Shown: positions 20,140 to 37,852, counted from the first letter of the stretch. The stretch: DNA of 39,587 bases from an uncultured Bdellovibrionales bacterium (GCA_964516165.1 CAZEYB010000001.1:15152-54738), one strand, 5' to 3'. Notes: generated from the sequence alone by a model not told the origin. Made by a program: numbers and translations.

Positions 20140-20145
20140 ATAATT

Positions 20146-20751
20146 ATGAAATTAATCACCATTTCCGGACTGGACGGTTCGGGAAAGTCCACTCAAATAG
20201 AACGGCTGAAAAATTATTTAGAATCGCAGAAAAAGCGCGTTTTTTATTTCCACGCGGTTGAATTTTCTTTGGCAAAAAAATTAACTGATTTTAGAAATAA
20301 ATACTGCTTGATTTGCCAAATGACAAAAAAATGCAAAATTTATAAAGAAAAAAGCATTACACGCGCCAATGCTCTCCAAATATTTTTACGGAAAATATTC
20401 TTGCGAATTGATATTTGGCGGTTTAATTTGTTGCGTAACAAATTACTTAACAAAAATTATGATTATATTTTAAGCGATAGATATTTTTACGACAGCGTGA
20501 TAAATATAGAATATCTGTCTAATAATATTTTTCTGACATCAAATATTAAAAAGCCGGATTTGGCCATATATCTCAAAGTTTCGCCTGACATTATTATGCG
20601 GCGCCAACGGGTGCCTGATCAGGGAATTAAATATCTCAAAAAGAAAAAAGAGCTTTATGAAGCCAAAATGTCCCAATGGAATATGCGAATTATTGACGGA
20701 GATAGAGACAAAAACACCATTTTTGAAGAAATAAAAAACTTTCTCCGCTAG
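20146..20751 (+). CDS. Thymidylate-kinase-like P-loop kinase (atypical)
   Basis: 201 aa. P-loop ISGLDGSGKSTQ, DRY-type motif SDRYFYDS and a lid-like RRQR. It lacks the TREPGGT NMP-binding motif and has a basic ~50-aa insertion containing CLICQMTKKC. Confidence 0.55.
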   Translation: MKLITISGLDGSGKSTQIERLKNYLESQKKRVFYFHAVEFSLAKKLTDFRNKYCLICQMTKKCKIYKEKSITRANALQIFLRKIFLRIDIWRFNLLRNKLLNKNYDYILSDRYFYDSVINIEYLSNNIFLTSNIKKPDLAIYLKVSPDIIMRRQRVPDQGIKYLKKKKELYEAKMSQWNMRIIDGDRDKNTIFEEIKNFLR

Positions 20752-20756
20752 AACTT

Positions 20757-22241
20757 ATGTCAAACTTTTTGGTAAAATCAACCCTTTGGGTCACGCTCTC
20801 GGAAATTATTTTTAATTTGTCCGGTTTCGTGATTCATTCGGTCGTCGGGCGAATTTTAGGTCCGGCGGATTATGGCCGGTTCGGATTGGTCGTAACGCTC
20901 ACGACCATGGTCATTATTCTTATTGGGAACGGCATTCCGACCGCCATGGCCAAATACATCAGCGAAGTTTTCGATACCAATTCCGCTCTCGTAAAAATTA
21001 TTAAGCGCCAGGCGATTATTTTACAAAGTTTTATAGTCGGAGCGACTACTGTTATTTTCTTCCTAAGCGCGCCGATTTTATCTAAAATTCTCGGCGATCC
21101 GACCCTCACTCCCCTCTTTCAAATTTCTTCGCTTATTATCCCGGCCTTTGCCGCCGCGTCTTTCTATTTTTCCTATTACACCGGGCTTCACCGCTTTAAT
21201 ATTCAATCATTTCTTAAGGTTTCCCGATCGTTTTTTCGAATTGTCTTTATTATCACTTTAGCTTATTTTTTCCGAGTGAAAGGTTCTGTTATCGGCTATA
21301 TCATCGCTCCCGCTCTTGTTTTCTTTTTGGCTTTTTTGATCGATAAATTCAAAGTTTCAAAAGAAATCCGCTTGAATCCGCGTGAAATTAACTCAAATCA
21401 GCGCGATAATTTTGATTGGCGAGTTTTAGCCAACTACGCTTGGCAAATCGTCATTTTCTTTTTAGCCTACGAACTGCTGATAAGCATTGATTTATATTTG
21501 GTTAAGGGCATCCTGCGCGACGATTATCTTGCCGGTATTTACAACGGAGCCCTTACTGTCGGACGAATCCCCTATTACATTTTCTACGCTCTCACTGTCG
21601 TGCTTCTTCCGGTCATATCCAAAAGCACTTCTCAAAACAACCGCGACAAAACGGTCGGAATCATCAGTCAGACACTCCGTCTCATGCTTATTTTTCTAGT
21701 TCCGTCGGTCATTCTCATGAGTGTTTTTTCCCAGTCAATTATCCGGGTCTTTTATTCCAGCCGTTACATTGATGCCGCTTATCCGATGTCCATTCTGGTT
21801 TGGGGAGTGGGATTTCTCACTATTTTTTATGTTCTTTGTTTCGTTATGAGCGGGGCGGGAAAAATAAAAAAACCGATGTTTATTTCCATCGCCGGACTGA
21901 TTCTTAACACTCTGCTTAATTATTTTATGATAAAAAAATACGGCATAACCGGATCGGCTATCGCCACTTCAATTGCTTCCGCCGCCATTACACTCATAAT
22001 GCTTCGGGAAATAAAAAAAGATTTCAACGTTATGATTTCTTTTAAAACACTTTTGAAAACACTTTTTGCCGGCGCCGTAATTTTTATAATCGCCCGGATG
22101 CTCCCCGGAGATGGAAATATTTTTATTTTTTGGACGATTCCGCTTTTCGCCTTATATTTACTGATTCTTTATGCCATGGCGGAAATAAAAAAAGAAGATA
22201 TTTTCTTTTTAAAAAATTCGCTCAAGCGACAGCCAAAATGA
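20757..22241 (+). CDS. Wzx/MOP-superfamily polysaccharide flippase
   Basis: 494 aa with about 12-14 TM helices and the N-terminal pattern typical of polysaccharide biosynthesis (MOP) proteins (SG.VIHSVVGRILGPADYG.F). Confidence 0.7.
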   Translation: MSNFLVKSTLWVTLSEIIFNLSGFVIHSVVGRILGPADYGRFGLVVTLTTMVIILIGNGIPTAMAKYISEVFDTNSALVKIIKRQAIILQSFIVGATTVIFFLSAPILSKILGDPTLTPLFQISSLIIPAFAAASFYFSYYTGLHRFNIQSFLKVSRSFFRIVFIITLAYFFRVKGSVIGYIIAPALVFFLAFLIDKFKVSKEIRLNPREINSNQRDNFDWRVLANYAWQIVIFFLAYELLISIDLYLVKGILRDDYLAGIYNGALTVGRIPYYIFYALTVVLLPVISKSTSQNNRDKTVGIISQTLRLMLIFLVPSVILMSVFSQSIIRVFYSSRYIDAAYPMSILVWGVGFLTIFYVLCFVMSGAGKIKKPMFISIAGLILNTLLNYFMIKKYGITGSAIATSIASAAITLIMLREIKKDFNVMISFKTLLKTLFAGAVIFIIARMLPGDGNIFIFWTIPLFALYLLILYAMAEIKKEDIFFLKNSLKRQPK

Positions 22242-22263: not shown

Positions 22264-24099
22264 TTAATCGTCTTCTTTTTCGCTTTCTAAATCATCCGAG
22301 CCGCTTTCGTCAATTTCAACATTGTTATTTTTTGAATTTCCGAAAATGTCCCGCCAAAAAACCCGATCCGCTTTGACAGCCTCCGATTTAGACGCCTCGG
22401 AATTATCCGGCATGACTGCGAATTTTGGCTTTGGATTGAGGTTCTGAATTTTATAAACAGAAATTTGTCCGGCTTTTTTAGAATCCAATATCTTAACTTC
22501 CCCGAACTCTTTAAAAACGTAATCATTATTTTTTTCCGAAGGAATAACAGCAAAATACGGACCGACTGCGTCATTTTCTTTTTCAACTCTTGAAGCTGAA
22601 AGCTCGGAATCTTTTTTAAGCGAAAGCAAATATTTAACCGGTGAAAAATGCTCTTGCTTGACATAATAAACAAGCGGCGCATCCGGCTCGCGATTCTCGT
22701 ACATATAATCTACCGCCTTTTCCAGCTGCGCCAGTGTTACTCCATCTTGATTTTTCAGAATTAGCGTCCGGTTAATAGACGTATCTTTAAGCTGAGATTT
22801 TTCTTGTTCGGAAAACCAGGCCAATGTACCTTTAAGATTCATGCCGACAATAAAGGCGGTTATTATGATTGCGAGGTATTTTCCTCGCCTGCCGATCTGT
22901 TCTTTAATAAAGACAAAAATCAGGCCCAAGAAAATAAACGGCAACGGAAAAACCGGGATGAAAAAGCGCGGTCTCAGCGAAGAATACAGCGGTATGGCGA
23001 GAATATAAAAAATTCCGAACCAAGCTATTAAAAGCCAAAGAAAATTATTTCTGATCCGATCTTTATGTTTAACGATATTTCTTATCGCCAAAGCTAAACC
23101 GGCTAAAATCGTCATAGCCGCTAAAAATCCGAAAAGCCGGTTGTCTTCCGTTTTGCCTTTGTAACATTCGGAAAAGGCCACCAGGCAATAATATTTCGTC
23201 TGTTTATCCATTGACCGCTCAAACTTTACGGAAAGTTTTTTATCATTTGGTTTCGTGCTGAAAGCTTCGACAAAACTCCTGGCGTTTTCTCCTCCCCTTA
23301 TCGCATCGCTTACAACTACAGGGCTATAAACAACTAAAAGAGTAACTATAAAGACCGCGACATAAGCCAGACTTTTCTGGCTGGAATATGAACCAGCCGC
23401 TTCGGACTGCTCAATGGCATCCAATTTCTTTTTAGCAAAAATCTTTTTCCAGGGCGAAAAATGCGTTAATAAAACAAACGCGGTTATAGTCGGAAGACAA
23501 AATACGCCCAGAAAATGAAGCTGGCTTCCGACTCCGATTCCAATTGCCGCCAGAACCGCGGAGAATATCTTTTTCTTGAAATTATCCGTCCGCAAAAAAT
23601 TTAACAGCCCATAAAAATTCAGAAGAGCGAAAAATAAGAGCGAATTGGGATTCCAGGCAAACCGCGCGTATTGAATAGCGATAAAAGAAAAAGCGTACAT
23701 CAGCATTATCAGAAAAGAATTCAGTTTGGAAAAATAGAAGCGTAAAAAAAGATAAAGAAGAGGGATAGTTAGAATTGAAAAAAATAAATCCGGATAAGCA
23801 AAAACCGGCGGTTCGACCGAATTGAAAATTTTTCCGGACAGATATTGGAAATAATAATAAGCCGGTCCCAGCCGTAAAAATCCAGCCGAAACTTCAGTCG
23901 CGCCCGCCCGCGGGCCTAAAAGCGGAAGTTCGCCCGGACCGTTTTCTATGGCTTTCCCTACCATCGCCGCGTCGCGCGCCTGGTCCATTTTAAAATACAG
24001 CCAATCATGATGATTATAAGCTCGTAGCCAAAATCCGACCGCCATTACGGCTAAAATAAAGACGGCTACCGTATATTTTCGGTTAAGAAAACTTGGCAT
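22264..24099 (-). CDS. GT-C glycosyltransferase, ArnT/PMT_2-like, paralogue 1 of 6
   Basis: 611 aa. FWLRAYNHHDWLYFKMDQARD, LGPAYYYF, AYPDLFFSILTIPLLY, ARFAWNPN, GSQLHFLG and a C-terminal soluble domain ending GQISVYKI plus an acidic tail. Confidence 0.65.
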   Translation of the reverse strand: MPSFLNRKYTVAVFILAVMAVGFWLRAYNHHDWLYFKMDQARDAAMVGKAIENGPGELPLLGPRAGATEVSAGFLRLGPAYYYFQYLSGKIFNSVEPPVFAYPDLFFSILTIPLLYLFLRFYFSKLNSFLIMLMYAFSFIAIQYARFAWNPNSLLFFALLNFYGLLNFLRTDNFKKKIFSAVLAAIGIGVGSQLHFLGVFCLPTITAFVLLTHFSPWKKIFAKKKLDAIEQSEAAGSYSSQKSLAYVAVFIVTLLVVYSPVVVSDAIRGGENARSFVEAFSTKPNDKKLSVKFERSMDKQTKYYCLVAFSECYKGKTEDNRLFGFLAAMTILAGLALAIRNIVKHKDRIRNNFLWLLIAWFGIFYILAIPLYSSLRPRFFIPVFPLPFIFLGLIFVFIKEQIGRRGKYLAIIITAFIVGMNLKGTLAWFSEQEKSQLKDTSINRTLILKNQDGVTLAQLEKAVDYMYENREPDAPLVYYVKQEHFSPVKYLLSLKKDSELSASRVEKENDAVGPYFAVIPSEKNNDYVFKEFGEVKILDSKKAGQISVYKIQNLNPKPKFAVMPDNSEASKSEAVKADRVFWRDIFGNSKNNNVEIDESGSDDLESEKEDD

Positions 24100-24112
24100 A
24101 AAATATGTATGA

Positions 24113-24141
24113 ATTATAGTTTATTTCGGCCGTATTCGCAA
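24113..24141 (-). promoter_or_regulatory. Candidate internal promoter for paralogue 1 (TTGCGA-17-TATAAT)
   Basis: On the minus strand, TTGCGA lies at 24141-24136 and TATAAT at 24118-24113 with a 17-nt spacer, inside the 51-nt gap between paralogues 2 and 1. It implies a very short leader. Confidence 0.3.
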
Positions 24142-24150
24142 AGCTGATTA

Positions 24151-25932
24151 TTAATCCTCATCAAGGGTTATTTCACTCCAGTTATACCTTTTTGGACCGC
24201 TTGATTTTGATTGCCTATCATCAAAGATCTTATAATCGTCGGTAATCGCCTCTTCTTTGGGAATGAGTTTTAAAACCGCTAAAGTCCCGAAATTTTTTAT
24301 TTCGGCGATATCATAAAAAGATTCTTCTTTTTTTCCTATTTTGTATTGATTGTCCGGCTTTCTATAATCCACCCAAAAATAATTAACATAACGGTAAATT
24401 TTATCATGGTTGATTCTGTCGTTAAAAAGAACGTTCTTCCGCTCAAAAATATAGGCTATCGCCGACACATAGCGCGTTTCTCCGTAAAATAAAATAGGAT
24501 ATCCATTTTTTTTCTGATTCTCCATCATATATTCGGCGATTTGTTTTTCTTGCGAATAAGTAACGCGCGTTTTTTCTTTAAGTATCGAATCATTTTCTAT
24601 TTTAATATTATTTTGGCTCGCGCCAGCCAGTTGGAAAAATCGGCTGGCGGCTTCTTTGCCGTTGGAAAAAATAAGAACAGCCAAAACCATCGCGGGAATA
24701 ATGTAATCCAAATAATATTTTTTCGATATTGTCTCAAAGATAAGACCGAGAAATATAAAAGGCATGAACGCGCCCAGAAGGAAAAAACGCGGTGAAATAG
24801 AAAGCGCTAAAGGCGTAAAAATAGCGAATGAGATAAAAAAGAAAGTCCCATTCAGGAAGAGAAAATCTTTTTTAACGGAATCGGTTTTCCTTTTCCATCG
24901 CAAAACAAGCAATGAAAACCCTGACACCAAAAACATCGCGCTTATCAATCCGAGATAATAATCCTGCGGGCAATCGTTTTCATCACATCGCCGAAAGTAG
25001 CTGGCGATTCCATTCAAATTTAACCCCAAAAGACTGTTACCGTCCCTTCCCGAAAGCATCAAAAAATATCCGGCGGAATGTTCTTTTAGATTCAGAAAAA
25101 CTTTTTTGGCCAAACCGGCTTCGTTTTTTTCAGACTTATCCGTAATCGCCCCAAAAAACTGCTCGGTATTATCTCCCCCGGTCATGGTTTCATTTATAAA
25201 AACCGGGGCATAAAACAGCAAGGCGGATAAAATCGCGAGGCTCCAGACAATTAATTTTAATTTCGGACGTTTTACGAGTAAAAAAATAAAAAACACAATA
25301 GGCAAAATTATAAACGCCAAAAAATGCAACTGCGTGGAAATGGATAAAGCGGCAAAACTTATTATCAGCCAGATATTTCGCCGTTTTTCGCCCGTATCGA
25401 CAGCGCGCAACATCGCGTAAAAAGATAAAGGCACGAAGAACACTAAATAATTAGGATTCCAAGCAAAACGGGAATAAACAATCAGGAAAGCGGAAGCTCC
25501 CGCGAGAAACACCAGAATAATTGAAATCTTTTTATCAAAGTAGCGCCGAAAATAAAGATAAAAAATAGGCAAAGCCAAAACAGAAAGCACTAACACTCCG
25601 CTAGCAATTCCCGGCGGCGTGTTTCCGGAAACTTTCGCGCTTAAATATGAGAGGTAATAAAAAGCCGGTCCGAGACGTAAAAACGTCCCCTGCGCCCGCG
25701 GACCCAGAAGCGGTAAATTGTTTATTCCGCCAATTACAGCTTCGGACACGACTTCGGCATCGCGCGCCTGATCAAGCTCAAAATGCAGCCAATCGGAAAA
25801 ATGATAAGACCGTAAAAATATCGCCAAAACCATCATTCCAAGAAATAAGAACCGAAAAAGGTTTTTCTTGTTCAAAATCCGGGCTTTATTTTTCTTTGTC
25901 TCTATCTTATGATTCAAAGTGTCGTTCTCCAT
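24151..25932 (-). CDS. GT-C glycosyltransferase, ArnT/PMT_2-like, paralogue 2 of 6
   Basis: 593 aa. FLRSYHFSDWLHFELDQARD, LGPAFYYL, SRFAWNPN, STQLHFLAF and a C-terminal domain with NFGTLAVLKL. The start overlaps the upstream metallopeptidase gene by 26 nt. Confidence 0.65.
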   Translation of the reverse strand: MENDTLNHKIETKKNKARILNKKNLFRFLFLGMMVLAIFLRSYHFSDWLHFELDQARDAEVVSEAVIGGINNLPLLGPRAQGTFLRLGPAFYYLSYLSAKVSGNTPPGIASGVLVLSVLALPIFYLYFRRYFDKKISIILVFLAGASAFLIVYSRFAWNPNYLVFFVPLSFYAMLRAVDTGEKRRNIWLIISFAALSISTQLHFLAFIILPIVFFIFLLVKRPKLKLIVWSLAILSALLFYAPVFINETMTGGDNTEQFFGAITDKSEKNEAGLAKKVFLNLKEHSAGYFLMLSGRDGNSLLGLNLNGIASYFRRCDENDCPQDYYLGLISAMFLVSGFSLLVLRWKRKTDSVKKDFLFLNGTFFFISFAIFTPLALSISPRFFLLGAFMPFIFLGLIFETISKKYYLDYIIPAMVLAVLIFSNGKEAASRFFQLAGASQNNIKIENDSILKEKTRVTYSQEKQIAEYMMENQKKNGYPILFYGETRYVSAIAYIFERKNVLFNDRINHDKIYRYVNYFWVDYRKPDNQYKIGKKEESFYDIAEIKNFGTLAVLKLIPKEEAITDDYKIFDDRQSKSSGPKRYNWSEITLDED

Positions 25933-26332
25933 TTACCTTTTTTAGATTAGTTTTCCTTCTCGCTTCCAATCGGCGCACTTCGTTTTCATTCATGCCAAAA
26001 TGATGCGCGATTTCGTGCCAGACTGTGTTTTTCACTATTTCTTTGATATCCTTGACATCGCGCGCCGCCTGCTCAATCGGTTTCTGGAAAATCGTTATTT
26101 TATCCGGAAGCACCGAACCGTAATGAGACCCTCGAGATATCTGCGGCACGCCTTCGTAAAGGCCAAAAAGCGTCCATCCGCGACGAAGATTTAATTTCCT
26201 TATCTGCGCCGGCGCTGGTTCATCTTCAACAACCACGGCCACATTGTCCAATTTCCGCAAAAAGCGTTCCGGAATAGCCGCTACTCCCGCTTCTACCATA
26301 TTCCTAAATTCCGTCCGGGTTATCTTCCGCAT
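25907..26332 (-). CDS. Zincin_1 (DUF1025-type) metallopeptidase family protein
   Basis: 141 aa. VVVEDEP, LFGLYEGVP and the HExxH zinc motif in WHEIAHHFG are characteristic of the small cytosolic Zincin_1 family. Confidence 0.7.
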   Translation of the reverse strand: MRKITRTEFRNMVEAGVAAIPERFLRKLDNVAVVVEDEPAPAQIRKLNLRRGWTLFGLYEGVPQISRGSHYGSVLPDKITIFQKPIEQAARDVKDIKEIVKNTVWHEIAHHFGMNENEVRRLEARRKTNLKKVNGERHFES

Positions 26333-26345
26333 ACATAATATGTAA

Positions 26346-27953
26346 TTATTTCACTTTCAAGTCAAAAACTGAAAACTGGCGATATAACGCGCATTTTTCC
26401 AATACGTATTTTTTCGCGATATTATCCGGCAGTTCGCATCCATCGCTGGAATTTCTTAAATAAAACAGCCTGTCTCCGCTTGTCAAGCTAACCGCTTTGT
26501 TCAATTCGACCAATTCCAAACCTTTTTTACTGGCGACAAGCCTTAGAGATTTAAAGGCTTTAAATAAATATCCCGCTTGAGCGTCAACATAAGCTGTCTT
26601 ATCGCCGTCATTGTTTCGCTTAATGTAATCCGTTATAAAATCAACTTCCCCGAGAGTTATATATTCAAAATTGCCATTGATTTCTCTGCCGCCAAATTGC
26701 AAATCCTTGAAAACCAAGTAATCTTTTCGTAAGCAAAAAAATGATAATACTAAAATAATTATTGCAAGCAACCGCTGTTTTTTGAATTTTTCCGACAAAA
26801 ATTTTAGCCAAAAACCAAGCAGAAAAAACGGTACAAATTCCAAGATTAGAAAAAATCGCATCAATAATTCATTAGCCCAGAGCGTAAAAAATAAAAAAGT
26901 CAAAAACACGTATGAAAGTACGAGCGTGAGGAAAAACTTTTTATCCTTGTTTGTTTCTTTCCTTAATCCGCAAAACGCGATGCAATAGCCTCCTAGAGAA
27001 AATATTGTCGCAATAATCAAATATGATACAAATAAAATTTTATCCGCCAATGGTATTTTTTTGCTATCTAGCTTTACGACATCCCTAGCAATAGCATTAT
27101 AATCACATTCGTCTTTATCACTATAAGAAGTTAAGATTCCATAATTAGCCCTAATATGACAAGTTATATTAAGAGCGATATTATCAATAAAACTTGCGTT
27201 GCGGCTGCCCTTATTCGCGACTCCCTCAAAAAAAGCGTGTATATTTGATCCACCGGTTCTAATTTCAGTATTTATCTGAAAAATATTCACTAGCAACGCG
27301 CCTGTTAAGACAGCGATAGCGCAGGCGCTGGTTAGTGTTTTGTTTTTGTAAAGATAAAAAGCGAAAAGCAAAGCAGAAATAGGCAGAAGCACCAAAAGCG
27401 TGGTGTGGAGTTGCGCTCCGATTCCCAAGGCTATTCCGGCAAGCGCTCCCCACCAATTTTTTTTATTTTTCTCGGCGCCATTAATGCGATACACCGCGTA
27501 AATAAATAACATTACAAAAAACGGAGCAGAATTGGGATTCCACGCGAAGCGTGAATATTTTATGACGAAATAGGAAATGGCAAAAAGCCAAGCCAGCGTC
27601 AGCGAAATGGGTTTATTAAAATAAATTCTAGCCAATAAAAATAAAAGAGGGATTGATAATAAAGAAAAAAATAAATCTGGATACGCGACCGCGGGAAAAC
27701 TTGCGCCAAATATTCTGGCCGAGATAATTTGAAAATAATAAAAAGCCGGTCCGAGCCTGAATTCTGTTCCGCCAGCTTTCGGGCCAAGCGCTGGCCAGGT
27801 ATTTTCTTTAATCAAGCTTTCCACGAAACTTGTATCGCGCGCTTGATCCATATTAACCCGCAACCAGTCAGAGAAATTATAAGCGCGCAAAAAAACACCG
27901 ATCAAAACAATAACCAGCAGCAGCCAAATACTTTTAGGAATTTTTTTTAACAT
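26346..27953 (-). CDS. GT-C glycosyltransferase, ArnT/PMT_2-like, paralogue 3 of 6
   Basis: FLRAYNFSDWLRVNMDQARD, LGPAFYYF, AYPDLFFSLLSIPLLF, SRFAWNPN and GAQLHTTL. I chose the start at Met35 of the ORF-track entry (ATG at 27953). That start aligns MLKKIPKSIW with the MxxFKKIP(K/R)HI N-termini of paralogues 4 and 6 and removes the overlap with the upstream gene. Confidence 0.65.
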   Translation of the reverse strand: MLKKIPKSIWLLLVIVLIGVFLRAYNFSDWLRVNMDQARDTSFVESLIKENTWPALGPKAGGTEFRLGPAFYYFQIISARIFGASFPAVAYPDLFFSLLSIPLLFLLARIYFNKPISLTLAWLFAISYFVIKYSRFAWNPNSAPFFVMLFIYAVYRINGAEKNKKNWWGALAGIALGIGAQLHTTLLVLLPISALLFAFYLYKNKTLTSACAIAVLTGALLVNIFQINTEIRTGGSNIHAFFEGVANKGSRNASFIDNIALNITCHIRANYGILTSYSDKDECDYNAIARDVVKLDSKKIPLADKILFVSYLIIATIFSLGGYCIAFCGLRKETNKDKKFFLTLVLSYVFLTFLFFTLWANELLMRFFLILEFVPFFLLGFWLKFLSEKFKKQRLLAIIILVLSFFCLRKDYLVFKDLQFGGREINGNFEYITLGEVDFITDYIKRNNDGDKTAYVDAQAGYLFKAFKSLRLVASKKGLELVELNKAVSLTSGDRLFYLRNSSDGCELPDNIAKKYVLEKCALYRQFSVFDLKVK

Positions 27954-27966
27954 ATTAATATTTGAG

Positions 27967-29619
27967 TTATTTTTCAACCCGGCAGACATCAACCCGGCCA
28001 AAATTTTGGCACTCAATCGCCTTTTTATATTTTTCCGCGGACACTCCCTTTTCATGTATTCCGATAAAAAACACGGGTTTATCCGGCGGAATCAAATCCT
28101 CTTTCTTTCTTATCAACAAGCTAAAGCCTTGCTCCCTGGTGATATAATTCAGTGGTTTTGAAAAATTAATACACTTGCCGCTAGTCAATAGATAGGCCTC
28201 TTTTTGAGGAAAAGATTTTGAGACAATAAAATCAGCAATCGTTTCCGACTCCCCGAACACTATTTTTTCTTGGGGAGCATTTCTGGTTTTTGCGGAAAGC
28301 TCTTTGACGGCAGGATAAATTGAGGAAATATTAAGAAGAGAAAGAATTATGAAAATTAAACCAATTATCCAAAAATACTTCTTGGAATATTTTTCAATTA
28401 ACCACTCCGAAAATAGACCTAAAAAAATGAAAGGAATAAAAATAGTATGCGCGAAATATCGCAGAGCGGAACTTATCACGGGAAGAAGAGTTAGAAAAGA
28501 AAAGCCGGCATATAAGATAATCAATCCTAGAAAATATTTTCTGGATAATTCTCTTTCTTTTCGGAAACGAGAAATCAGCAAACCATAACCCAACACCGAA
28601 AAAATGATCGCCAAAATCATGCCTGAAATTATTATCGGATCTTTGATCTCTTTAAGATCATCCTTGATTTTACCACCCTTAATTAAACTTGAAATGAAAA
28701 AACTGCAATTTTCTTTATCACCCAAGGAAGAAGCGATATGCAAGTTAGCCTGAATATGACATTCCGCGTCTTGAGTAAAATTAATCATCAATTCCCTGCC
28801 GCTGCTTGAACTATCGCCGCTAATTGAAGATAGAAATGCTTTTGAATTGGCGAATCCCGTCTCCAATTCACTTATTATCTGACCCGAATTAAGTATAACC
28901 GCCGCCAGAAGAACTATTGTCCATTTTTTCCAAAAAATTCGCCTTTTTTTCAACAAATACAAAAAAACAAAAAAAATAACGGCTGGAAACAAGACAAACA
29001 ATATCGCATGCAATTGGATTCCAACCCCAAGCGCGATGCCTAAAGAGATAGCCCACAACCAAGAAATTTTTTCTTTGTCAACTAAAAATTTCCAAAGAGA
29101 CAATAAGAAAAGCAAGGCAAAAAATGGAATAATATTTGGATTCCAAGCCGAATGAGAAAATTTAAGAGAATAAAAAGAAATTGTATATAAACCTGTTAAC
29201 GCTAGCGACAAATTACGCTTAAAATATCGACTAGAAAAATAAAAGAGTAGCGGAATAGACAAAACTGAAAATAGCAAATCCGGATAAGCCAATGCGTAGG
29301 GCTTCATACCAAACATCTTCGCGCTTAATATTTGAAAATAATAATAAATTGGCCCTGTATGAAATCTATTCGCGCGACTATTTCCATCTTCTCCATTGCC
29401 AGATTTGCTCATATCAGGACCCAGAAGCGGCCAAGCGGTTTCACCTCTTATTACCGATCTAACCAAATCAGCGTCATGCACTTGATCATCGCCAAAATCA
29501 AGCCAATCATTCAAATGATAAGCGCGCAAAAAAGTTCCCAGTAGGATTATAGCCAAAAGAATCCCTATATGTCTTGGTATTTTTTTAAACTGTTCCTTAA
29601 AATTGTTAATCATAACCAA
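27967..29619 (-). CDS. GT-C glycosyltransferase, ArnT/PMT_2-like, paralogue 4 of 6 (motif-divergent)
   Basis: 550 aa. FLRAYHLNDWLDFGDDQVHD (Arg to His in the loop motif), a longer loop (DMSKSGNGEDGNSRANRFHTGPIYYYF), AYPDLLFSVLSIPLLF, SHSAWNPN and GIQLHAIL. It is most similar to paralogue 5. Confidence 0.65.
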   Translation of the reverse strand: MVMINNFKEQFKKIPRHIGILLAIILLGTFLRAYHLNDWLDFGDDQVHDADLVRSVIRGETAWPLLGPDMSKSGNGEDGNSRANRFHTGPIYYYFQILSAKMFGMKPYALAYPDLLFSVLSIPLLFYFSSRYFKRNLSLALTGLYTISFYSLKFSHSAWNPNIIPFFALLFLLSLWKFLVDKEKISWLWAISLGIALGVGIQLHAILFVLFPAVIFFVFLYLLKKRRIFWKKWTIVLLAAVILNSGQIISELETGFANSKAFLSSISGDSSSSGRELMINFTQDAECHIQANLHIASSLGDKENCSFFISSLIKGGKIKDDLKEIKDPIIISGMILAIIFSVLGYGLLISRFRKERELSRKYFLGLIILYAGFSFLTLLPVISSALRYFAHTIFIPFIFLGLFSEWLIEKYSKKYFWIIGLIFIILSLLNISSIYPAVKELSAKTRNAPQEKIVFGESETIADFIVSKSFPQKEAYLLTSGKCINFSKPLNYITREQGFSLLIRKKEDLIPPDKPVFFIGIHEKGVSAEKYKKAIECQNFGRVDVCRVEK

Positions 29620-29626
29620 TAACTTT

Positions 29627-31258
29627 TCAATTTTTAATTATGTAAACACCCAGCTGTCCAAAATCTTTGTAATTTCCCACATTATATTTCTTAAAATATC
29701 CGCCGGAATTGATATCCGAACTTTCTCCTAGCATAATGATTGGCTTGTCCGCTGGAACATCAGTAATCTTTTTTAATCTCGTTAAAGCAAAACCTTTCTC
29801 CCCTAAAACATACGTAAGCGGCTTGATGAAATTCTGCATATATTTTCCATCAGCCAAAAAATAAATTGATTCGCTTGAAATTTGAGAGGCGATATATTCT
29901 CCTATTTCTTCAATTTCTCCCAAAACCACATAACGTTCACTGCTTCTGTTTTTCAGAGCGTGAGCTTTTGCCTCATTCCCGATAGTAATCAGATTGGCAA
30001 CAGCTAACGAAGCAAAAACAGCCATAGTAACCGGCAAATATATTTTAGGAAACTTTTCCTTGATAAATTTAAAAAGAAATCCCAAAAACAAGAAAGGAAG
30101 GAATATTAAATGAATAAAATAGCGGATAGCCAAACTGTCCATAACCGGATGCATAATAATAAAAGAAAGAGCGGTATAGAGTATAAGCATACCCAAAAGA
30201 TATTTTTTTTCTCTGTCAGTTTCTTTTCTATAATAATAAACCAGCGCCCCATATCCGAAGAAAAAGAAAAAGATACTCAAAAAAATTCCGGAGAATATCA
30301 TGTAGTTAAAAAAATTAAATGGAATTCCATACGCATATTTATACTTAATCTTGTGCTTCACAATCGACAGAAAATTGAAATCCAATTTATTGCCCAATCC
30401 TGAAATAATATGCGCGTTGGACTGGGAATTGCTCAAAATGTCCAGTTTCAAATTAAACCCAAATTTTTTTTGTCCGTTTTCCGAGCTCTCCGTAAAAAGT
30501 TTCAAAAATAATTTCGAATTGGCGTAATTTTTATCCATCTCGCTGATTATCTGCGGAATATTCAGAATTACCGCCAGCGCGAAAATAACCACCCATCTTC
30601 TCCAAACCGAGCGATTCTTTAACATAAGAAAAACAAAAGCAAAAAATAGAACAGCCGGAAGCAATAGCAGGAGTAAAGTATGCAGCTGAACTCCCACGCC
30701 TAACGCGATTCCTATCATCACTACCCAAGGCCATTTAGTTTTATTTTCTTCAAGCAAAAATTTCCAAAGAGCAATGAGAAATAGTAACATAAAAAACGGT
30801 ATAGGATTGGGATTCCAAGCAAAACGAGAATATTCAATCGCATAAAACGATATCGCATAAAGCCCCGTAATGGCCAAGGATAAATTTTTTGTAAAATAGC
30901 GGCTGGAAAAATAATAGAGAAGCGGGATGGATAGAATAGAAAAAAATAAGTCCGGGTAGGCCATTGTCTCCGGCTGAACGCCAAAAATGTATCCGGAAAT
31001 AATTTGAAAATAATAATAAATCGGTCCGATTTTAAACTTAGTGCTAGCGGCAATCGCGCCCATTAATGGCCATTCTCTTTCTCCATCAAGCACTTCTTTA
31101 ACAATAGTCACATCTCGCGCTTGATCCGGATAAAAATAGAGCCATTCGCGAAAATTATAGGTACGCAAGAAAATTCCCGCAATAATTATAACTAAAAGAA
31201 TCCCGATATGAATTGGCATCTTTCTAATATTTTCTTTGATTATCTTTATATTTCTCAT
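29627..31258 (-). CDS. GT-C glycosyltransferase, ArnT/PMT_2-like, paralogue 5 of 6
   Basis: 543 aa. FLRTYNFREWLYFYPDQARD, IGPIYYYF, AYPDLFFSILSIPLLYYFSSRYF, SRFAWNPN and GVQLHTLL. There is a 4-nt overlap with the upstream YfhO-like gene. Confidence 0.65.
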   Translation of the reverse strand: MRNIKIIKENIRKMPIHIGILLVIIIAGIFLRTYNFREWLYFYPDQARDVTIVKEVLDGEREWPLMGAIAASTKFKIGPIYYYFQIISGYIFGVQPETMAYPDLFFSILSIPLLYYFSSRYFTKNLSLAITGLYAISFYAIEYSRFAWNPNPIPFFMLLFLIALWKFLLEENKTKWPWVVMIGIALGVGVQLHTLLLLLLPAVLFFAFVFLMLKNRSVWRRWVVIFALAVILNIPQIISEMDKNYANSKLFLKLFTESSENGQKKFGFNLKLDILSNSQSNAHIISGLGNKLDFNFLSIVKHKIKYKYAYGIPFNFFNYMIFSGIFLSIFFFFFGYGALVYYYRKETDREKKYLLGMLILYTALSFIIMHPVMDSLAIRYFIHLIFLPFLFLGFLFKFIKEKFPKIYLPVTMAVFASLAVANLITIGNEAKAHALKNRSSERYVVLGEIEEIGEYIASQISSESIYFLADGKYMQNFIKPLTYVLGEKGFALTRLKKITDVPADKPIIMLGESSDINSGGYFKKYNVGNYKDFGQLGVYIIKN

Positions 31259-33372
31259 ATTTTTAGTATGCGCGCGTAGAGAAGCTTCCTGGACAAAAAA
31301 TACGCGGTAATAATAACTGCAAATAGCACCAGGCTAAAAAATATTCCCCAAAAAAACGGCCGCGGATAATAATAAATTTCAACCAAATGATCGCCTTGCT
31401 TTAGAGAAAAATCAAAAAAAACACCATTCTTCATTATTTTAGCTTTTTGACCATCAATCTTGACTTTCCAGCAAGGACTATACTTCAGATAAGTATTTAT
31501 AATAGAATCGGACGGATTATTTATTCGCATAACCACATGGCCTTCTTTCTTTTCGACATAATAACCATCTAAATTATTTTTTATTAAATCCAGTTTATTA
31601 TTATTCAGAAAAGTTATTCCGCTGTGCTGTGAAACAGCCGCAATTCCGGCATTTCGCAAAGATCGAAGATCATTCGGCACTCCGACAAGAGAGGTTGTCG
31701 CCCCTCTTAAATTATAGCCTAATTTCCCATAATAATCGGTATAAGCGCTTTCCTTGAGCTGGCTAGTCCCAAAGGGACTCCAATTAGCATAATAAAGCGA
31801 TTCCATGCCTAATATATCCAAATTGCTTAATATAACTCTTTTATTTTCTAACTCTTTTGGAATGGATGCGGCTTCGTAATCAGATATGTCTTGCAATCTT
31901 AAACTTAAAACATCCTTACTGAAATATAAAAGATCGAAAAATATCACAGCAACAATAAGTAGTTTGATTGGCAATAAAATTTTAGAAAAAATATGCGGAG
32001 ATGTTTTTTTAACAATAAAGAGAATCAACAAAATACAAACCGAGCTCAATGCAATCACGCAGAGCATATGAAAATGAGGATAAGTTTGAATATAATGGCA
32101 GGAAGCATAAAAATTAAGCTTCCGAGCAATTTTTCCTTTATCCAAGCTAATCAACATCAATATGTAGGCCAAGGGAGCCGCTACAAATAAAAATCCCGTT
32201 TTTATATTTTTAAATGAGACTTCTTTGATTCTTTCAATGAACATTCCGGATAGAAAAGCAACTCCAAAAACAAAAAGAATGACCGTCCTCTCCCACTCTC
32301 GAAAATATGTAATAAGCGGCGTAGAAGAAGGAAAGATATGATTGCTTTCCATGAATCCAAACAACAAAAATATCCAGATAAATACAAATGCCACAATCAC
32401 TTCTCGTGATTTTTTAAGCGCCAATAAAGCTAAAAATGATAAGATTAGAGCGCTGATGCCACAGTAAAAATAAATTTCATTATATCTGAAATCAGCGCTG
32501 ATTTCTCGACCGATAAAATTATTGCTCTCTCCCAAAAGATAGGGCACGAAAGAAAAAATAGCCATGCGCGGATTAAGAGATCCTTTCAAATAGTCCGTGC
32601 CGCCCTCGCGGCTACTTTGGCTGAATAATTCATAAGTTGGCAGCATTTGTGGCAAGGTTTCAATTGTTACAAAAAAACCAAGAGCTACAAAGAAAAAAAT
32701 AAAAGTCAAAAAACGCGTTTTTTTGAAAGAAAATACAGCCATATAGGCGAATATGCCCATCAACAATATAGCGACCGACTGAATATGCCCCCACAAAACA
32801 GCATTAGCAATAATCAGAGACTCCATGATGACATAACGCCATTGCCTTTTTTCCAAAAATAAATCAGCAGAAAGCAGGCTGGTCGGCAATAAATACAGCG
32901 CCATAACCATGCCGTAATGTATCTGGTGATTGATAAAAAAAGTATTGAAATAAAATATAATATTAGCAACAGCATAGCCTAAAAATCCAACGCCTTTGCG
33001 TCTTAGTAAAAAATAAAGACTTAACGAGCCAACTAAGTATTCCAACAGATGCAACACCTTGTAAGATACTCGCGGTCCAAATAGCAATACGCTGGAAACG
33101 TTCAGTGGATTGAGATAGGCATTTTCCATGTCCGCGTAAATAGGAAAACCGGAATACATTTTTTCCGTCCAAAAAGGAAATGAATGCTCCTTGGTAATTC
33201 TATCGTAAAGATAAGTTCTTGCCGGCAAATGCCTTATTTGAGCGTCAGTCTCTTGACCCGTACTCCAAAAAAAGTGCGAGGGAGTTAAAAATTGGCCATA
33301 GAAAAAAAGATATGTCAAAAATGACAAAGCCACGGCGAATAAAAAACTTTTATGGCGACTTATTATTCCCAT
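31255..33372 (-). CDS. YfhO-like GT-C polytopic membrane protein
   Basis: 705 aa with many TM helices. The N-terminal loop TDAQIRHLPARTYLYDRITKEHSFPFWTEKMYSGFPIYADMENAYLNPLN matches the D..Q...P...l....g..P.W....G.P pattern I associate with the YfhO family. It ends in a C-terminal soluble domain plus a final TM. Confidence 0.5.
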   Translation of the reverse strand: MGIISRHKSFLFAVALSFLTYLFFYGQFLTPSHFFWSTGQETDAQIRHLPARTYLYDRITKEHSFPFWTEKMYSGFPIYADMENAYLNPLNVSSVLLFGPRVSYKVLHLLEYLVGSLSLYFLLRRKGVGFLGYAVANIIFYFNTFFINHQIHYGMVMALYLLPTSLLSADLFLEKRQWRYVIMESLIIANAVLWGHIQSVAILLMGIFAYMAVFSFKKTRFLTFIFFFVALGFFVTIETLPQMLPTYELFSQSSREGGTDYLKGSLNPRMAIFSFVPYLLGESNNFIGREISADFRYNEIYFYCGISALILSFLALLALKKSREVIVAFVFIWIFLLFGFMESNHIFPSSTPLITYFREWERTVILFVFGVAFLSGMFIERIKEVSFKNIKTGFLFVAAPLAYILMLISLDKGKIARKLNFYASCHYIQTYPHFHMLCVIALSSVCILLILFIVKKTSPHIFSKILLPIKLLIVAVIFFDLLYFSKDVLSLRLQDISDYEAASIPKELENKRVILSNLDILGMESLYYANWSPFGTSQLKESAYTDYYGKLGYNLRGATTSLVGVPNDLRSLRNAGIAAVSQHSGITFLNNNKLDLIKNNLDGYYVEKKEGHVVMRINNPSDSIINTYLKYSPCWKVKIDGQKAKIMKNGVFFDFSLKQGDHLVEIYYYPRPFFWGIFFSLVLFAVIITAYFLSRKLLYARILKI

Positions 33373-35000
33373 AAACTATAAATTATTATATTGCCAAATA
33401 TTTTATAATTCCCGACTTTTTTCCCGCCGATCGCGTCTATTCCCGCGTTTTCTCTGGAATCATTGTCAATTAACTTTACATAAAAAAGCGGGACATTCGA
33501 ATCAATCTCATTTTTACTTTTTTCATTTAACCTGGCAATTTTCACGCCGGATTCGCTCATAAGATATCCTAAAGCGCCGGAGAAACGATGAAGACTGGCT
33601 CTGTCTCCGTCTAAATATACCTTATTGGAACCGCGAGAATTTTCAAGTATATAATTCGCGGCGGGAATAATCTCTCCCAAGATGCTAATTTCACTATTGC
33701 TGGCTTGACCGGAAGCATATTCGCGGGCATCCCTGCCGAGAGAATAAAAATTGAAACATAATAAAGCTACCGCCAATAAAACAAAGATTATTTTTTTTAT
33801 TTCCGCTTTCCAGTTTGTGTTATTTATCAAATTTATCCAAAGACCGAGAAACACAAATGACACAAAAAATATAAAATTAAAATAATGCACTTCCGCTTGA
33901 GACACTACTGATACGAATAAGCCTAAAAAAACCAAATTAAAAAACATAAGCAACGCCAAGAACCTTTTTTTATGTAGCTCCAATTTTTTATCAAAAAAAT
34001 TAGAAAACCACAACCAATACCCGCCCAGTGCGAATAAAATGCCCGCCAATATTTTTACGATAAACCACAGGGAACTTATTTTCTGATAATTGATAATTTT
34101 TTTTTCTAAATTAAGTCCGCGAGCGCAGTATTTCGTATCGCTAAGCGAAAAGATTTGATTAATGCTCGACCTCGCTTGACAAAGTGTGGTTAAAAAAACA
34201 TTTTCAGCCAGATTTTCATTTAAACCGGCGGATTCGGAACTTGCCCCTTTTAAAAAATGCTTAAAATTAGATCCGCCCGCCCTTACTTCATAAATTAACT
34301 GACCAAAATTCATAAGTAAGAAAAACGATATTACCAAAAGAAAATTTTTCCAAGCAAGGTTTTTATTTTTAATCAGATATATACATGCCGCGACAGCCAC
34401 GACAGGCATCGCTAAAAATGACAGAGCGTGCAGTTGTATTCCAATACCCAAGCTAATTCCCACAATTATTGCCCAAATATATCTTTGTTTATTTTTTTCC
34501 TCCATCATCTCCAGGAGTCCATAAAGAAATATAATTATAAAGAAAGAGAGTAAATTGGAATTCACCGCGAACCTCGCGGTATAAATTGAAAAATAAGCGA
34601 TAGAAAACAAGGCGCTCAAAGAAAGAGAAATGCCCGAAGAAAAATATTTTTTTAGCAAAAAAAATAGAGCCGGAATTGTTAAGATGGAAAACAGTAAATC
34701 AGGATAGGCCAGTTTATCCGGCGAACCGCCAAAAATTAGAGCGGATAAGTATCCCAGCTGATAATAAATAGGACCGAGATAAAACTGAGTGTTTCCCGCT
34801 TGCGCGCCCAGCAAAATCGGCCCGCTTTTTCCCTCAATCGCATCACTAATTATCGTAGCATCCCTAGCCTGATCCGGACCAAATAAAAGCCAATCATGAA
34901 AATGATAAGCGCGCAAAAAAATACCCGCCAACATTATAGCCAAAAGAATCCAAATATGTTTGGGTATTTTTTTAAATTTAGCCCTAAAATGCTCGAACAT
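33363..35000 (-). CDS. GT-C glycosyltransferase, ArnT/PMT_2-like, paralogue 6 of 6
   Basis: 545 aa. FLRAYHFHDWLLFGPDQARD, LGPIYYQL, AYPDLLFSILTIPALF, ARFAVNSN, GIQLHALS and a C-terminal domain ending YKIFGNIIIYSL. It is the first gene of the minus-strand array. Confidence 0.65.
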   Translation of the reverse strand: MFEHFRAKFKKIPKHIWILLAIMLAGIFLRAYHFHDWLLFGPDQARDATIISDAIEGKSGPILLGAQAGNTQFYLGPIYYQLGYLSALIFGGSPDKLAYPDLLFSILTIPALFFLLKKYFSSGISLSLSALFSIAYFSIYTARFAVNSNLLSFFIIIFLYGLLEMMEEKNKQRYIWAIIVGISLGIGIQLHALSFLAMPVVAVAACIYLIKNKNLAWKNFLLVISFFLLMNFGQLIYEVRAGGSNFKHFLKGASSESAGLNENLAENVFLTTLCQARSSINQIFSLSDTKYCARGLNLEKKIINYQKISSLWFIVKILAGILFALGGYWLWFSNFFDKKLELHKKRFLALLMFFNLVFLGLFVSVVSQAEVHYFNFIFFVSFVFLGLWINLINNTNWKAEIKKIIFVLLAVALLCFNFYSLGRDAREYASGQASNSEISILGEIIPAANYILENSRGSNKVYLDGDRASLHRFSGALGYLMSESGVKIARLNEKSKNEIDSNVPLFYVKLIDNDSRENAGIDAIGGKKVGNYKIFGNIIIYSLWE

Positions 35001-35057: not shown

Positions 35058-35085
35058 TTGACACCCGCTGTCCACATTATATACT
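35058..35085 (+). promoter_or_regulatory. Candidate promoter for the plus-strand Gtr-like module (TTGACA-16-TATACT)
   Basis: TTGACA at 35058-35063 and TATACT at 35080-35085 with a 16-nt spacer, ~40 nt upstream of the ATG at 35127. Confidence 0.35.
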
Positions 35086-35126: not shown

Positions 35127-35528
35127 ATGAAAAAAATCGAAAGAAAATACCTTATCGGCGGAGGTATAGCAGTTGTCGCACTCGTTTTAATCGCGGGTAT
35201 TATGATTAAGCAAAAGAGGACTGTCAAGCCAGCGCCCTTGGTTAAGATTACCGGCGAGATTGGATCAATTTCAAACGATAAATCGTCGATAACCGTAAAA
35301 ACGGAAATTATTACTTATACGGCCAATATGGCCGCGGTAAAAACTTTGAAGAACAGCGCGGGAGAAAAGATCTCCATAGATGATATTAAGACTGGAGATA
35401 AAATTGAACTGCGCACCAGAACTAATATCGAAGGCGGGAAAATCACGGAAATCAACGTGTATTCGCTCAAGGATCTTTCTATTTCAAGCTCCGATACTGG
35501 CGCGAAACTAGAGACAACCGCTTTATGA
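35127..35528 (+). CDS. Small N-terminally anchored extracytoplasmic protein (hypothetical, possibly DUF5666-like beta domain)
   Basis: 133 aa. TM helix GGGIAVVALVLIAGIMI followed by ITGEIGSISNDKSSITVKT...DDIKTGDKIELRT. There is a 4-nt overlap (ATGA) with the downstream GT-C gene. Confidence 0.45.
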   Translation: MKKIERKYLIGGGIAVVALVLIAGIMIKQKRTVKPAPLVKITGEIGSISNDKSSITVKTEIITYTANMAAVKTLKNSAGEKISIDDIKTGDKIELRTRTNIEGGKITEINVYSLKDLSISSSDTGAKLETTAL

Positions 35529-37420: not shown

Positions 37421-37852
37421 TTGGATATTCAAATCAATAAAGAAACAATAAAATCTTTTATCCGAAAAAAGCCTGAGAAGACTTTGCATCAATTTATCCG
37501 CTATTTGTTCGCCGGCGGAACCGCCACTGTGGTTGATATTTCGGTTCTTTTTGTTTTATATCAATTTCTGCACATTAACTACCTAATCGCGGCGGCCATC
37601 GCGTATTGCTGCGGGATACTTACTAATTTCACCATCAATGTCATTTTTGTTTTTGAATCCACTGGACGGATAAAGAAAGAATTTATTATCTTTGCTTCCG
37701 TCGGCGCTGTCGGACTTCTTTGGACGGAATTTATTCTTTGGTTATTATCCGATAAATTAGATATTCCCGTGATGCTGGCAAAAATAGTCACGGTTATTTT
37801 TGTCCTGTTCTGGAATTTCTTTATGCGGAAAAAATTGGTTTTTAAAAAATGA
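37421..37852 (+). CDS. GtrA-family small membrane protein (putative polyprenyl-P-sugar translocation factor)
   Basis: 143 aa with four TM helices, FIRYLFAGGTATVVDISVLF and C-terminal WNFFMRKKLVFKK typical of GtrA-like proteins. TTG start as given in the ORF track. Confidence 0.7.
   Translation: MDIQINKETIKSFIRKKPEKTLHQFIRYLFAGGTATVVDISVLFVLYQFLHINYLIAAAIAYCCGILTNFTINVIFVFESTGRIKKEFIIFASVGAVGLLWTEFILWLLSDKLDIPVMLAKIVTVIFVLFWNFFMRKKLVFKK

Follow-up and report, generated by a model that had tools for sequence, protein, structure and literature searches.

A Moranbacteria-type array of six PMT_2-family GT-C paralogues with a DQxRD first-loop motif

Several groups of polytopic glycosyltransferases of the GT-C class resemble the products of six paralogous genes, here named G1 to G6, which form an array at positions 22264–35000 of a 39,587-nt stretch of DNA (hereafter the window) from an uncultured Bdellovibrionales bacterium (GCA_964516165.1, CAZEYB010000001.1:15152-54738). 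One of these is ArnT (CAZy family GT83; PDB 5EZM/5F15), which shares with the array copies the Pfam domain PMT_2, a polytopic core and a soluble C-terminal domain outside the membrane. ArnT was also the best Foldseek match to the array copy that we modelled, its DETRY motif aligned with the DQARD motif of the array, and a glycosyltransferase family 2 (GT2) gene resembling arnC lies nearby. ArnT has 13 transmembrane (TM) helices, whereas 11 were predicted for the array copy. Moreover, the array copies lack a sequence-level match in the PDB and share about 11% identity with ArnT in the structural alignment; in their motifs, Q stands where ArnT has E, D where it has Y, N-P-N where it has D-P-F, and H where it has the essential Lys of MTK.

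The PMT enzymes (CAZy GT39; Pmt1-Pmt2, PDB 6P25; Pmt of Streptomyces and Mycobacterium) likewise have 11 TM helices and an acidic motif in loop 1 whose first Asp is shared; NCBI names homologues of the array genes GT39, and Pfam PMT matches G4 and G6. However, the structural match of PMT to the array copy spans only ~260 columns (the N-terminal module), the array lacks a MIR domain, and array-family genes come in sets of 3–7 copies rather than singly. A third comparison concerns the three-component systems GtrA/GtrB/GtrC (Shigella, Salmonella), CsbB/GtcA/YfhO (Bacillus, Listeria) and Citrobacter GT136, each of which combines a synthase for the lipid-linked sugar with a small protein of flippase type and a GT-C transferase (PMC11127046). 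Here the parts list is the same, but a single donor module stands beside eight genes of GT-C type (six DQxRD, one DE, one YfhO), whereas the known systems have one. Finally, the mycobacterial enzymes EmbA/B/C, AftA-D and PimE share the GT-C(A) fold and occur as several paralogues per genome, each with its own linkage or acceptor, and AftB resembles the array copies in having 11 TM helices and a C-terminal outside domain (PMC12041299). Unlike the array copies, they belong to other sequence families; the C-terminal domain of the array is a small alpha/beta domain of ~115 residues with no recognisable carbohydrate-binding fold, and the window showed no genes of a decaprenyl-phospho-arabinose pathway.

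Here, we describe G1–G6 as members of a PMT_2 branch that, judged from sequence, is specific to Moranbacteria, the group to which we assign the bacterium as well. The enzyme type and the pathway logic are well known; the DQxRD branch with its altered signature is lineage-specific. We propose that the six proteins probably act as polyprenyl-phosphate-sugar-dependent, extracytoplasmic GT-C(A) transferases that differ in acceptor or linkage and work on a surface glycan or glycoprotein.

Family, fold and topology of the six paralogues

Each of the six copies matched Pfam PMT_2 (PF13231) above its gathering threshold of 26.1 bits (G1, 29.7; G2, 40.6; G3, 43.5; G4, 49.3; G5, 43.2; G6, 31.5), and Pfam PMT (PF02366) was above its cut-off only in G4 (25.5 bits) and G6 (36.2 bits). 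NCBIfam returned merely weak, sub-threshold matches (Agl23, WsfD, ArnT and the Leptospira LA_3751/2 family); the ArnT equivalog PRK13279, with a cut-off of 567 bits, was matched solely by G4, at 20.9 bits. Because searches of the PDB sequences gave nothing relevant, solved structures are linked to the family only by fold comparison. G4 was modelled with AlphaFold from an 89-sequence alignment (predicted local distance difference test score, pLDDT, 92.1; predicted template modelling score, pTM, 0.92) and compared with the PDB using Foldseek. The best match was ArnT (5ezm, E 7.9e-7), followed by STT3/PglB, Pmt1-Pmt2, ALG12, AftA, ALG9, Pmt4, ALG3, Emb, AftD and PimE. The top 27 matches were all GT-C enzymes, 19 matches had E <= 1e-3, and the first 24 had a probability of 1.00. 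A preliminary description of this DNA, made from the sequence, had assigned the six proteins to GT-C and PMT_2, and both assignments hold.

According to DSSP, the G4 model (whose residue numbers are used throughout) starts with TM1 (7–24), two helices (35–50 and 70–82), TM2 (86–111) and a kinked TM3 (114–126/128–132). These are followed by TM4–7 (139–233), an outside loop (234–301), four further TM helices and the C-terminal alpha/beta domain, which adds up to 11 TM helices plus the C-terminal domain. As described for AftB, ArnT and PglB, the GT-C(A) core consists of TM1–7, with a kink in TM3 and a first outside loop that contains two juxtamembrane helices; the catalytic Asp sits at the tip of the first of these helices (PMC12041299). 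The G4 model shows the same elements, namely TM1–7, two juxtamembrane helices before TM2 and the kink in TM3, and Asp36 stands at the start of helix 35–50, the site of the GT-C(A) catalytic Asp, for which we predict the same role. Positive-inside analysis found clusters of Lys and Arg at the N-terminus and at the TM ends bordering the short even-numbered loops. Given this distribution, the first and fourth external loops (EL1, 25–85; EL4, 234–301) and the C-terminal domain are predicted to lie outside. The DQARD motif is thereby placed in an extracytoplasmic rather than a cytoplasmic loop, as had been proposed.

Conserved motifs and replaced active-site charges

To describe conservation in the family we used the same 89-sequence alignment or 255 members from 75 related loci, each locus being a match with flanks of up to 10 kb in both directions. 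Using hhalign, in profile-sequence as well as profile-profile comparisons, D-Q-A-R-D fell exactly on D-E-T-R-Y of E. coli ArnT (PDETRY), at the probability given below, which supports the earlier reading of the motif as a variant of the ArnT D-E-x-R-Y loop. Homologues of E. coli ArnT among the matches listed all had at least 76% identity, and the ArnT profile hardly improved the alignment. The first-loop motif reads DQARD in five of the six copies and DQVHD in G3, so that Gln and the final Asp are common to all six; the exchanges of Glu for Gln and Tyr for Asp, previously ascribed to five copies, are real but extend to every copy. Among the 255 members, D-Q-x-R-D was found in ~82%, and position 37 was Gln in ~89% (DE in nine members, DA in six). 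Of the GT39 DE motif, the family thus keeps the Asp, whereas Gln takes the place of Glu in every array copy and in most other members. Asp36 itself was invariant in the 89 sequences and present in 253 of the 255 locus members, the remaining two being gapped there.

The other shared motifs deviate slightly from the set listed in the preliminary description, which is otherwise present. QLH is invariant in the six copies, and W/V-N-P/S-N also occurs in all of them (G1 reads ARFAVNSN). AYPDL is found in five; G5 reads ASGVL and thus lacks AYPD at the outer end of TM2 (ASGV), yet it has DQARD, RFAWNPN and QLH, which means that the family can do without Asp93. In the 89-sequence alignment Asn139, Asn141, Gln181, Leu182 and Asn237 were invariant and His183 nearly so; across the 255 members N141, Q181 and H183 exceeded 97%, with N139 at ~94%. 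EL4 contains a mostly conserved Cys pair. By region, identity among the six copies was 48% in EL1, 38% in TM2–7, 27% in TM8–11 and 21% in EL4. The C-terminal ~115 residues, formerly described as a homologous domain of ~110 residues, could indeed be aligned among all copies, at only 21% identity. The earlier impression of conserved TM cores and diverging loops and C-terminal domains therefore fits TM2–7, EL4 and the C-terminal domain, but EL1 is the most conserved part and TM8–11 have diverged. This pattern is the usual GT-C split between a conserved module for donor binding and catalysis and a variable acceptor module.

Two further positions were aligned by hhalign both with ArnT and with P7, a distantly related PMT_2 protein encoded next to the array: the N-P-N of the array aligned with N-P-D of P7 and D-P-F of ArnT, and its L-H with T-K of both. 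The Lys of T-K is the essential K203 in ArnT and K302 in Pmt (PMC8698208). Taken together, the ArnT and P7 alignments show Gln, Asn and His conserved at three canonically charged positions (E, D and K). As far as these alignments tell, the predicted catalytic Asp has stayed in place. For the DE motif of Streptomyces coelicolor Pmt, the E114A variant was functional and the D113A variant dead (PMC8698208), and the change from Glu to Gln is consequently milder than the preliminary description implied. The paired changes of G3 (R39 to N/H together with R135-F136 to H-S) recur in nine related sequences from other loci, among them L016 8330-9979 and L038 6668-8296. Arg39 and Arg135 may cooperate, for example on the donor phosphate, with shared ancestry as an equal explanation.

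Age of the copies and occurrence across Moranbacteria

In an all-versus-all BLASTP comparison, G1–G6 shared 26–44% identity, mostly over their full length, with E-values of 1e-35 to 1e-140 (G1 versus the other five, 29–43%; G5 versus the others, 26–35%; the closest pair G2/G3, 43–44%). These alignments mark the six proteins as true homologues, whose shared motifs reflect common descent rather than compositional coincidence. The longest identical run between copies measured 9 to 10 residues, and the DNA repeats between copies, located at conserved motifs, were 44–121 nt long with 60–80% identity. Given that identity does not exceed 44%, that identical runs are short and that the DNA repeats are short and diverged, we regard G1–G6 as old paralogues. 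The idea that the fourth and fifth paralogues are the most recent duplicates, with long runs of identity, had to be abandoned, since even the top pair, G2/G3, reaches only 44%. A duplication by assembly is ruled out by the same protein identities and diverged DNA repeats, and the copy order P7-s133-G1-Y-G2 (for P7, s133 and Y, see Table 1) was found again in three independent assemblies (ENA, Logan and JGI), reached through the product of Y; the exact G4 product gave no match in the contig index. A recent duplication is excluded as well, because the closest relatives of each copy sit in other genomes.

Indeed, the number of sequences closer than any paralogue in the window was 80 for G4 (from 59 loci), 79 for G6, 50 for G5, 42 for G1 and eight each for G2 and G3. 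The best relatives of G1 (64% identity) and the G2 orthologue (62%) were found in locus L019, which holds orthologues of G1, Y and G2 together (62–67%). Orthologues of G4 occur in Moraniibacteriota metagenome-assembled genomes (MAGs) at 62–68% identity (62–66% in L001–L005), and the best relatives of G5 (58%) and G6 (57%) in L011. As orthologues of different parts thus lie in different genomes, the array looks mosaic in sequence comparison, possibly through transfer or recombination among Moranbacteria. Genomes about equally distant in their flanking genes differ in array membership, and GC content at third codon positions (GC3) was 0.345–0.377 in the block G1-Y-G2-G3-G4 versus 0.41–0.475 in G5, G6 and the flanking genes.

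The product of G4 is identical to a protein at NCBI, and its relatives belong almost without exception to MAGs of Candidatus Moraniibacteriota (Moranbacteria, within the Patescibacteria or Candidate Phyla Radiation, CPR), and many are already annotated as 'glycosyltransferase family 39 protein' by NCBI. A HMMER scan of 1.84 billion representatives yielded 696 clusters at E <= 1e-30. At least three family members were present in 52 of the 75 related loci and at least six in nine, nearly all on one strand, and arrays of 3–7 copies are the norm in Moranbacteria loci. With at least six copies in just nine loci, the array studied here lies at the upper end of a phylum-wide pattern and no peculiarity of one genome. 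Synteny is conserved too: the arrays are flanked by P7, GtrA and GT2 genes on one side and by Wzx-Tmk-RtcB-GT4-small ORF-DUF6541-GT4-GT2 (ORF, open reading frame) on the other; the order array-Wzx-Tmk-RtcB recurs in most of the related loci, and the longer order from Wzx to GT2 in many. The small, compact genome that had been supposed agrees with the CPR type of the Moraniibacteriota relatives, one of which is complete at 1.05 Mb. Literature searches on Moranbacteria or CPR with GT-C, GT39 or mannosyltransferase found no description of the family, in agreement with the earlier view of the subfamily as uncharacterised; its annotation is only the generic GT39.

Family members were also found in MAGs labelled 'uncultured Bdellovibrionales' or 'Candidatus Fimivivens' (L012, L023, L059, L063, L067, L071, L073, L048 and L069). 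Five of these loci (L023, L059, L063, L067 and L069) have Moranbacteria-type neighbours too, such as Wzx-Tmk-RtcB or GT4b-Wzy-GT4a-LCP. On this sequence comparison, the taxonomic labels or the binning of these MAGs look doubtful.

Gene neighbourhood and proposed function

On the minus strand, the array region contains eight closely packed ORFs, of which six are the full-length paralogues of 535–611 residues (Table 1). What had been called a six-copy tandem array is thus correct in the number, strand and position of the copies, but two other genes interrupt it. The first, Y, overlaps the end of G1 with its start (10 nt) and the start of G2 with its end (4 nt). Y itself has no Pfam match; about half of its homologues (n = 44) match PF09586 (YfhO), some carry the name 'YfhO family protein', and Y is probably another GT-C transferase. 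The second is a Zincin_1 gene, which overlaps the start of G5 by 26 nt and has a GC3 of 0.47 versus 0.35–0.42 in its neighbours. It was not encountered in the array of any of the 75 related loci and is probably a passenger. For G4 we chose as start Met35 of a longer ORF reaching 28055, which avoids an 89-nt overlap with G3. Since adjacent array genes are spaced by anything from a 26-nt overlap to only a 51-nt gap, the array is compatible with one operon. A promoter and terminator scan of the window gave 65 sites, not above the 52 +/- 9 of shuffled sequence, and its best -35/-10 match in the divergent gap upstream of the array lies at 35058-35085. Scans of the window for tRNAs and Rfam families found no matches.

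Table 1. Genes of the array and its surroundings (positions counted from the first nucleotide of the window)
Feature	Position	Strand	Remarks
G1, DQxRD-type PMT_2 GT-C paralogue	33363-35000	-	545 aa; DQARD, ARFAVNSN, QLH
Y, YfhO-family polytopic membrane protein	31255-33372	-	705 aa; between G1 and G2
G2, DQxRD-type paralogue	29627-31258	-	543 aa; PMT_2 match
G3, variant paralogue	27967-29619	-	550 aa, TTG start; DQVHD and HSAWNPN replace DQARD and RFAWNPN
G4, DQxRD-type paralogue, modelled copy	26346-27953	-	535 aa; DQARD codons 27834-27848
Zincin_1, small metallopeptidase-like gene	25907-26332	-	141 aa; PF06262, E 2e-28; between G4 and G5
G5, DQxRD-type paralogue	24151-25932	-	593 aa; without AYPD; C-terminal tail
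G6, DQxRD-type paralogue	22264-24099	-	611 aa; acidic C-terminal tail
s133, small membrane-anchored protein	35127-35528	+	133 aa; head of P7 operon; only weak Pfam matches
P7, seventh, distantly related PMT_2 GT-C	35525-37405	+	626 aa; canonical VDEPYW; PMT_2 40.8 bits
GtrA-family small membrane protein	37421-37852	+	143 aa; PF04138 GtrA_DPMS_TM, E 2e-25
GT2, candidate polyprenyl-phosphate sugar synthase	37879-38847	-	PF00535, E 5.5e-29; faces P7/GtrA
Second candidate lipid-sugar synthase GT2	13158-14141		
Wzx/MurJ-type flippase	20757-22241	+	Polysacc_synt, E 9.5e-25; converges on array end

The preliminary account of the locus had overlooked the genes that give the array a functional frame, namely the DE-type PMT_2 protein P7, the GtrA-family protein, the ArnC/GtrB-like GT2 and Y. 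P7 is transcribed divergently from the array, downstream of s133, which was called in this place in three independent assemblies. It resembles the array family in its PMT_2 domain and its Moranbacteria neighbourhood, but reads D-E, N-P-D and T-K versus D-Q, N-P-N and L-H. By BLASTP, P7 had no significant match to four of the six copies and weak, short ones to G5 and G6 (E 0.008–3); hhalign aligned it with the array family at 91.8% probability across TM2–6. Its own family (n = 61) shows the canonical [V/A/I]-D-E-x-x-W, the D-E pair being kept except in one row reading GDE, and is represented by one to three copies that are divergently transcribed and coupled to GtrA. The GtrA gene directly follows P7, a pairing seen in many related loci, and its product is a candidate flippase for a lipid-linked sugar. 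The adjacent GT2 has two C-terminal hydrophobic segments, resembling TM helices in the translation. GT2, GtrA and GT-C genes (P7, G1–G6 and Y) therefore lie side by side, an adjacency that recurs in related loci, and P7, GtrA and GT2 form a complete canonical three-component set beside the array.

At its other end, the array is bounded by the Wzx gene, a boundary conserved across Moranbacteria. The remainder of the window is a surface-polysaccharide cluster with four GT4 and two further GT2 genes, Wzy_C, the Wzx-like flippase, an LCP ligase, a UDP-glucose dehydrogenase family gene and a DUF6541 membrane protein. The latter, a polytopic protein of 628 residues (15257-17143, plus strand) with DUF6541 and DUF1616 matches (E about 1e-8), is encoded between GT4 genes and may be another membrane glycosyltransferase or polymerase of the cluster. 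Genes for RtcB (an RNA ligase) and thymidylate kinase (18613-20751, plus strand) are embedded in the glycan cluster, as in most related loci.

Based on this arrangement, we propose the following pathway. The ArnC/GtrB/CsbB-like GT2 at 37879-38847, presumably membrane-anchored, would draw on a nucleotide sugar to charge polyprenyl phosphate with a sugar on the cytoplasmic side, the GtrA-family protein would help the lipid-linked sugar to reach the outer face, and each GT-C paralogue would then transfer the sugar to an acceptor outside the membrane. Within each paralogue, the N-terminal module (TM1–7 and EL1, including the two juxtamembrane helices of that loop) would hold the lipid-linked donor and catalyse the transfer via Asp36, and EL4, TM8–11 and the C-terminal alpha/beta domain would choose the acceptor or the linkage. 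The six copies would be non-redundant and would decorate or extend a surface glycoconjugate; candidate acceptors are the wall-linked polysaccharide of the surrounding Wzx/Wzy/LCP cluster or surface glycoproteins. Non-redundancy is supported by the closer relatives that each copy has elsewhere and by the identity of 38–48% in the conserved module versus 21–27% in the variable parts. As the variable module diverges and the orthologue lineages have been retained, a diversification of acceptor specificity among the copies appears plausible from the sequences.

Several observations weigh against this proposal. Searching all PDB sequences with hidden Markov models of the family (A1, A2) gave no relevant match, even with a limit of E <= 10, the Foldseek TM-scores were modest (0.34–0.55), and the alignment with ArnT reached an hhalign probability of just 53–59% (E about 1e-4). 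The C-terminal domain, modelled alone (pLDDT 85), gave weak, generic Rossmann-like matches (best E 2.5e-3, TM-score < 0.5), none of them below E 1e-3, and neither a carbohydrate-binding fold nor a hint of the acceptor emerged. The best NCBIfam matches of the GT2 at 37879-38847, ArnC (E 5.6e-46) and PgfS (E 3.2e-44), both lie below the curated cut-offs. Gln, Asn and His being neutral or weakly basic, the chemistry could differ from that of the canonical enzymes, or some copies could be inactive, and it is alignment together with topology that would bring Asp36, Gln37, Asn139/141 and His183 around one pocket. In addition, what the sequences and the model show are homology, fold, predicted topology, equivalence of the motifs, gene neighbourhood, the age of the duplications and the conservation of the array across the phylum, whereas any statement on the kind of donor, on sugar and acceptor or on how the copies would share the work is an inference.

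Alternatively, the copies might be protein O-glycosyltransferases of the PMT or Pgf kind, each acting on different secreted or surface proteins such as pilins, S-layer proteins or adhesins. The episymbiotic lifestyle of CPR bacteria relies on surface appendages, Pfam PMT scored above its cut-off in G4 and G6, Pmt1-Pmt2 and Pmt4 were among the Foldseek matches, and the neighbouring GT2 resembles PgfS of the streptococcal protein-glycosylation system. However, the array lies within a polysaccharide cluster (with Wzx, Wzy, LCP ligase and several GT4/GT2), its proteins lack the Glu of the PMT hallmark DE and have neither a MIR nor a TPR domain, and no gene for a Ser/Thr-rich candidate acceptor was seen within the window. 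We therefore consider protein O-glycosylation rather unlikely.

We also considered an assembly line, in which the copies would build a polymer stepwise on the outside from lipid-linked monosaccharides, like mycobacterial Emb, Aft and Mpt. The 3–7 ordered same-strand copies kept phylum-wide, the old orthologue lineage behind each copy, the presence of AftA, Emb, AftD and PimE among the Foldseek matches, and two candidate lipid-sugar synthases (GT2 37879-38847 and GT2 13158-14141) would fit such a scheme. Yet a complete Wzx/Wzy-type backbone pathway is already present in the cluster, and copy number and membership vary between equally distant genomes, for which reason a variable decoration fits better than a fixed, essential pathway; a stepwise assembly line thus appears quite improbable.

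A strictly ArnT-like lipid modification, whereby a cationic or neutral sugar would be placed on a membrane lipid or a lipoteichoic-acid-like molecule and alter the surface charge, is very unlikely. ArnT was the best structural match, the GT2 is closest to ArnC, a gene of the UDP-glucose dehydrogenase family belongs to the cluster, and in Firmicutes teichoic acids receive sugars from YfhO-type systems. On the other hand, the ArnA, ArnB and ArnD families were unmatched among the scanned window proteins, which have only the ArnC-like GT2 and the UDP-glucose dehydrogenase, and six diverged acceptor modules are hard to square with one lipid target. To our knowledge, CPR bacteria are moreover generally described as being without lipid A.

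That some or all copies are inactive or serve as a scaffold, glycan-binding partner or transporter, as D-Q, N-P-N and L-H (versus D-E, D-P-F and T-K in ArnT and D-E, N-P-D and T-K in P7), the further changes of Arg39 and Arg135 in G3 and the missing AYPD in G5 might suggest, is the least probable explanation, because the replacing residues are invariant or nearly so across the 255 members, a sign that a working site is under selection. In addition, the predicted catalytic Asp does not vary, other genomes preserve the G3-type substitutions instead of showing their decay, the E114A variant of S. coelicolor Pmt is functional (PMC8698208) and several GT-C(A) enzymes have no metal requirement (PMC12041299).

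The proposal that G1–G6 are lipid-linked-sugar-dependent transferases on a surface glycan or glycoprotein could be taken further, although this extension is doubtful. In that case, Moranbacteria would possess a phylum-specific, 'charge-neutralised' GT-C battery that builds or heavily diversifies their main surface glycan outside the membrane from lipid-linked sugars by a distinct chemistry, for example one that is metal-independent or adapted to an anionic donor or acceptor such as a uronic acid or a phosphate-containing polymer. If true, the mosaic, strain-variable array membership would be a specificity code for host attachment or phage escape.

For the organism, ~15 kb devoted to eight GT-C-type genes corresponds to roughly 1.4% of a ~1 Mb genome, the size of the complete relative. 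It is believed that CPR/Patescibacteria live in attachment to other cells, and little has been learned about the chemistry of their surface. Arrays that recur across the phylum with variable membership therefore provide a testable handle on the construction and variation of the envelope in these bacteria. To enzymologists, the family represents a natural experiment, in which Gln, Asn and His stand in for the Glu, Asp and Lys of ArnT/PMT-type sites while the predicted catalytic Asp is kept.

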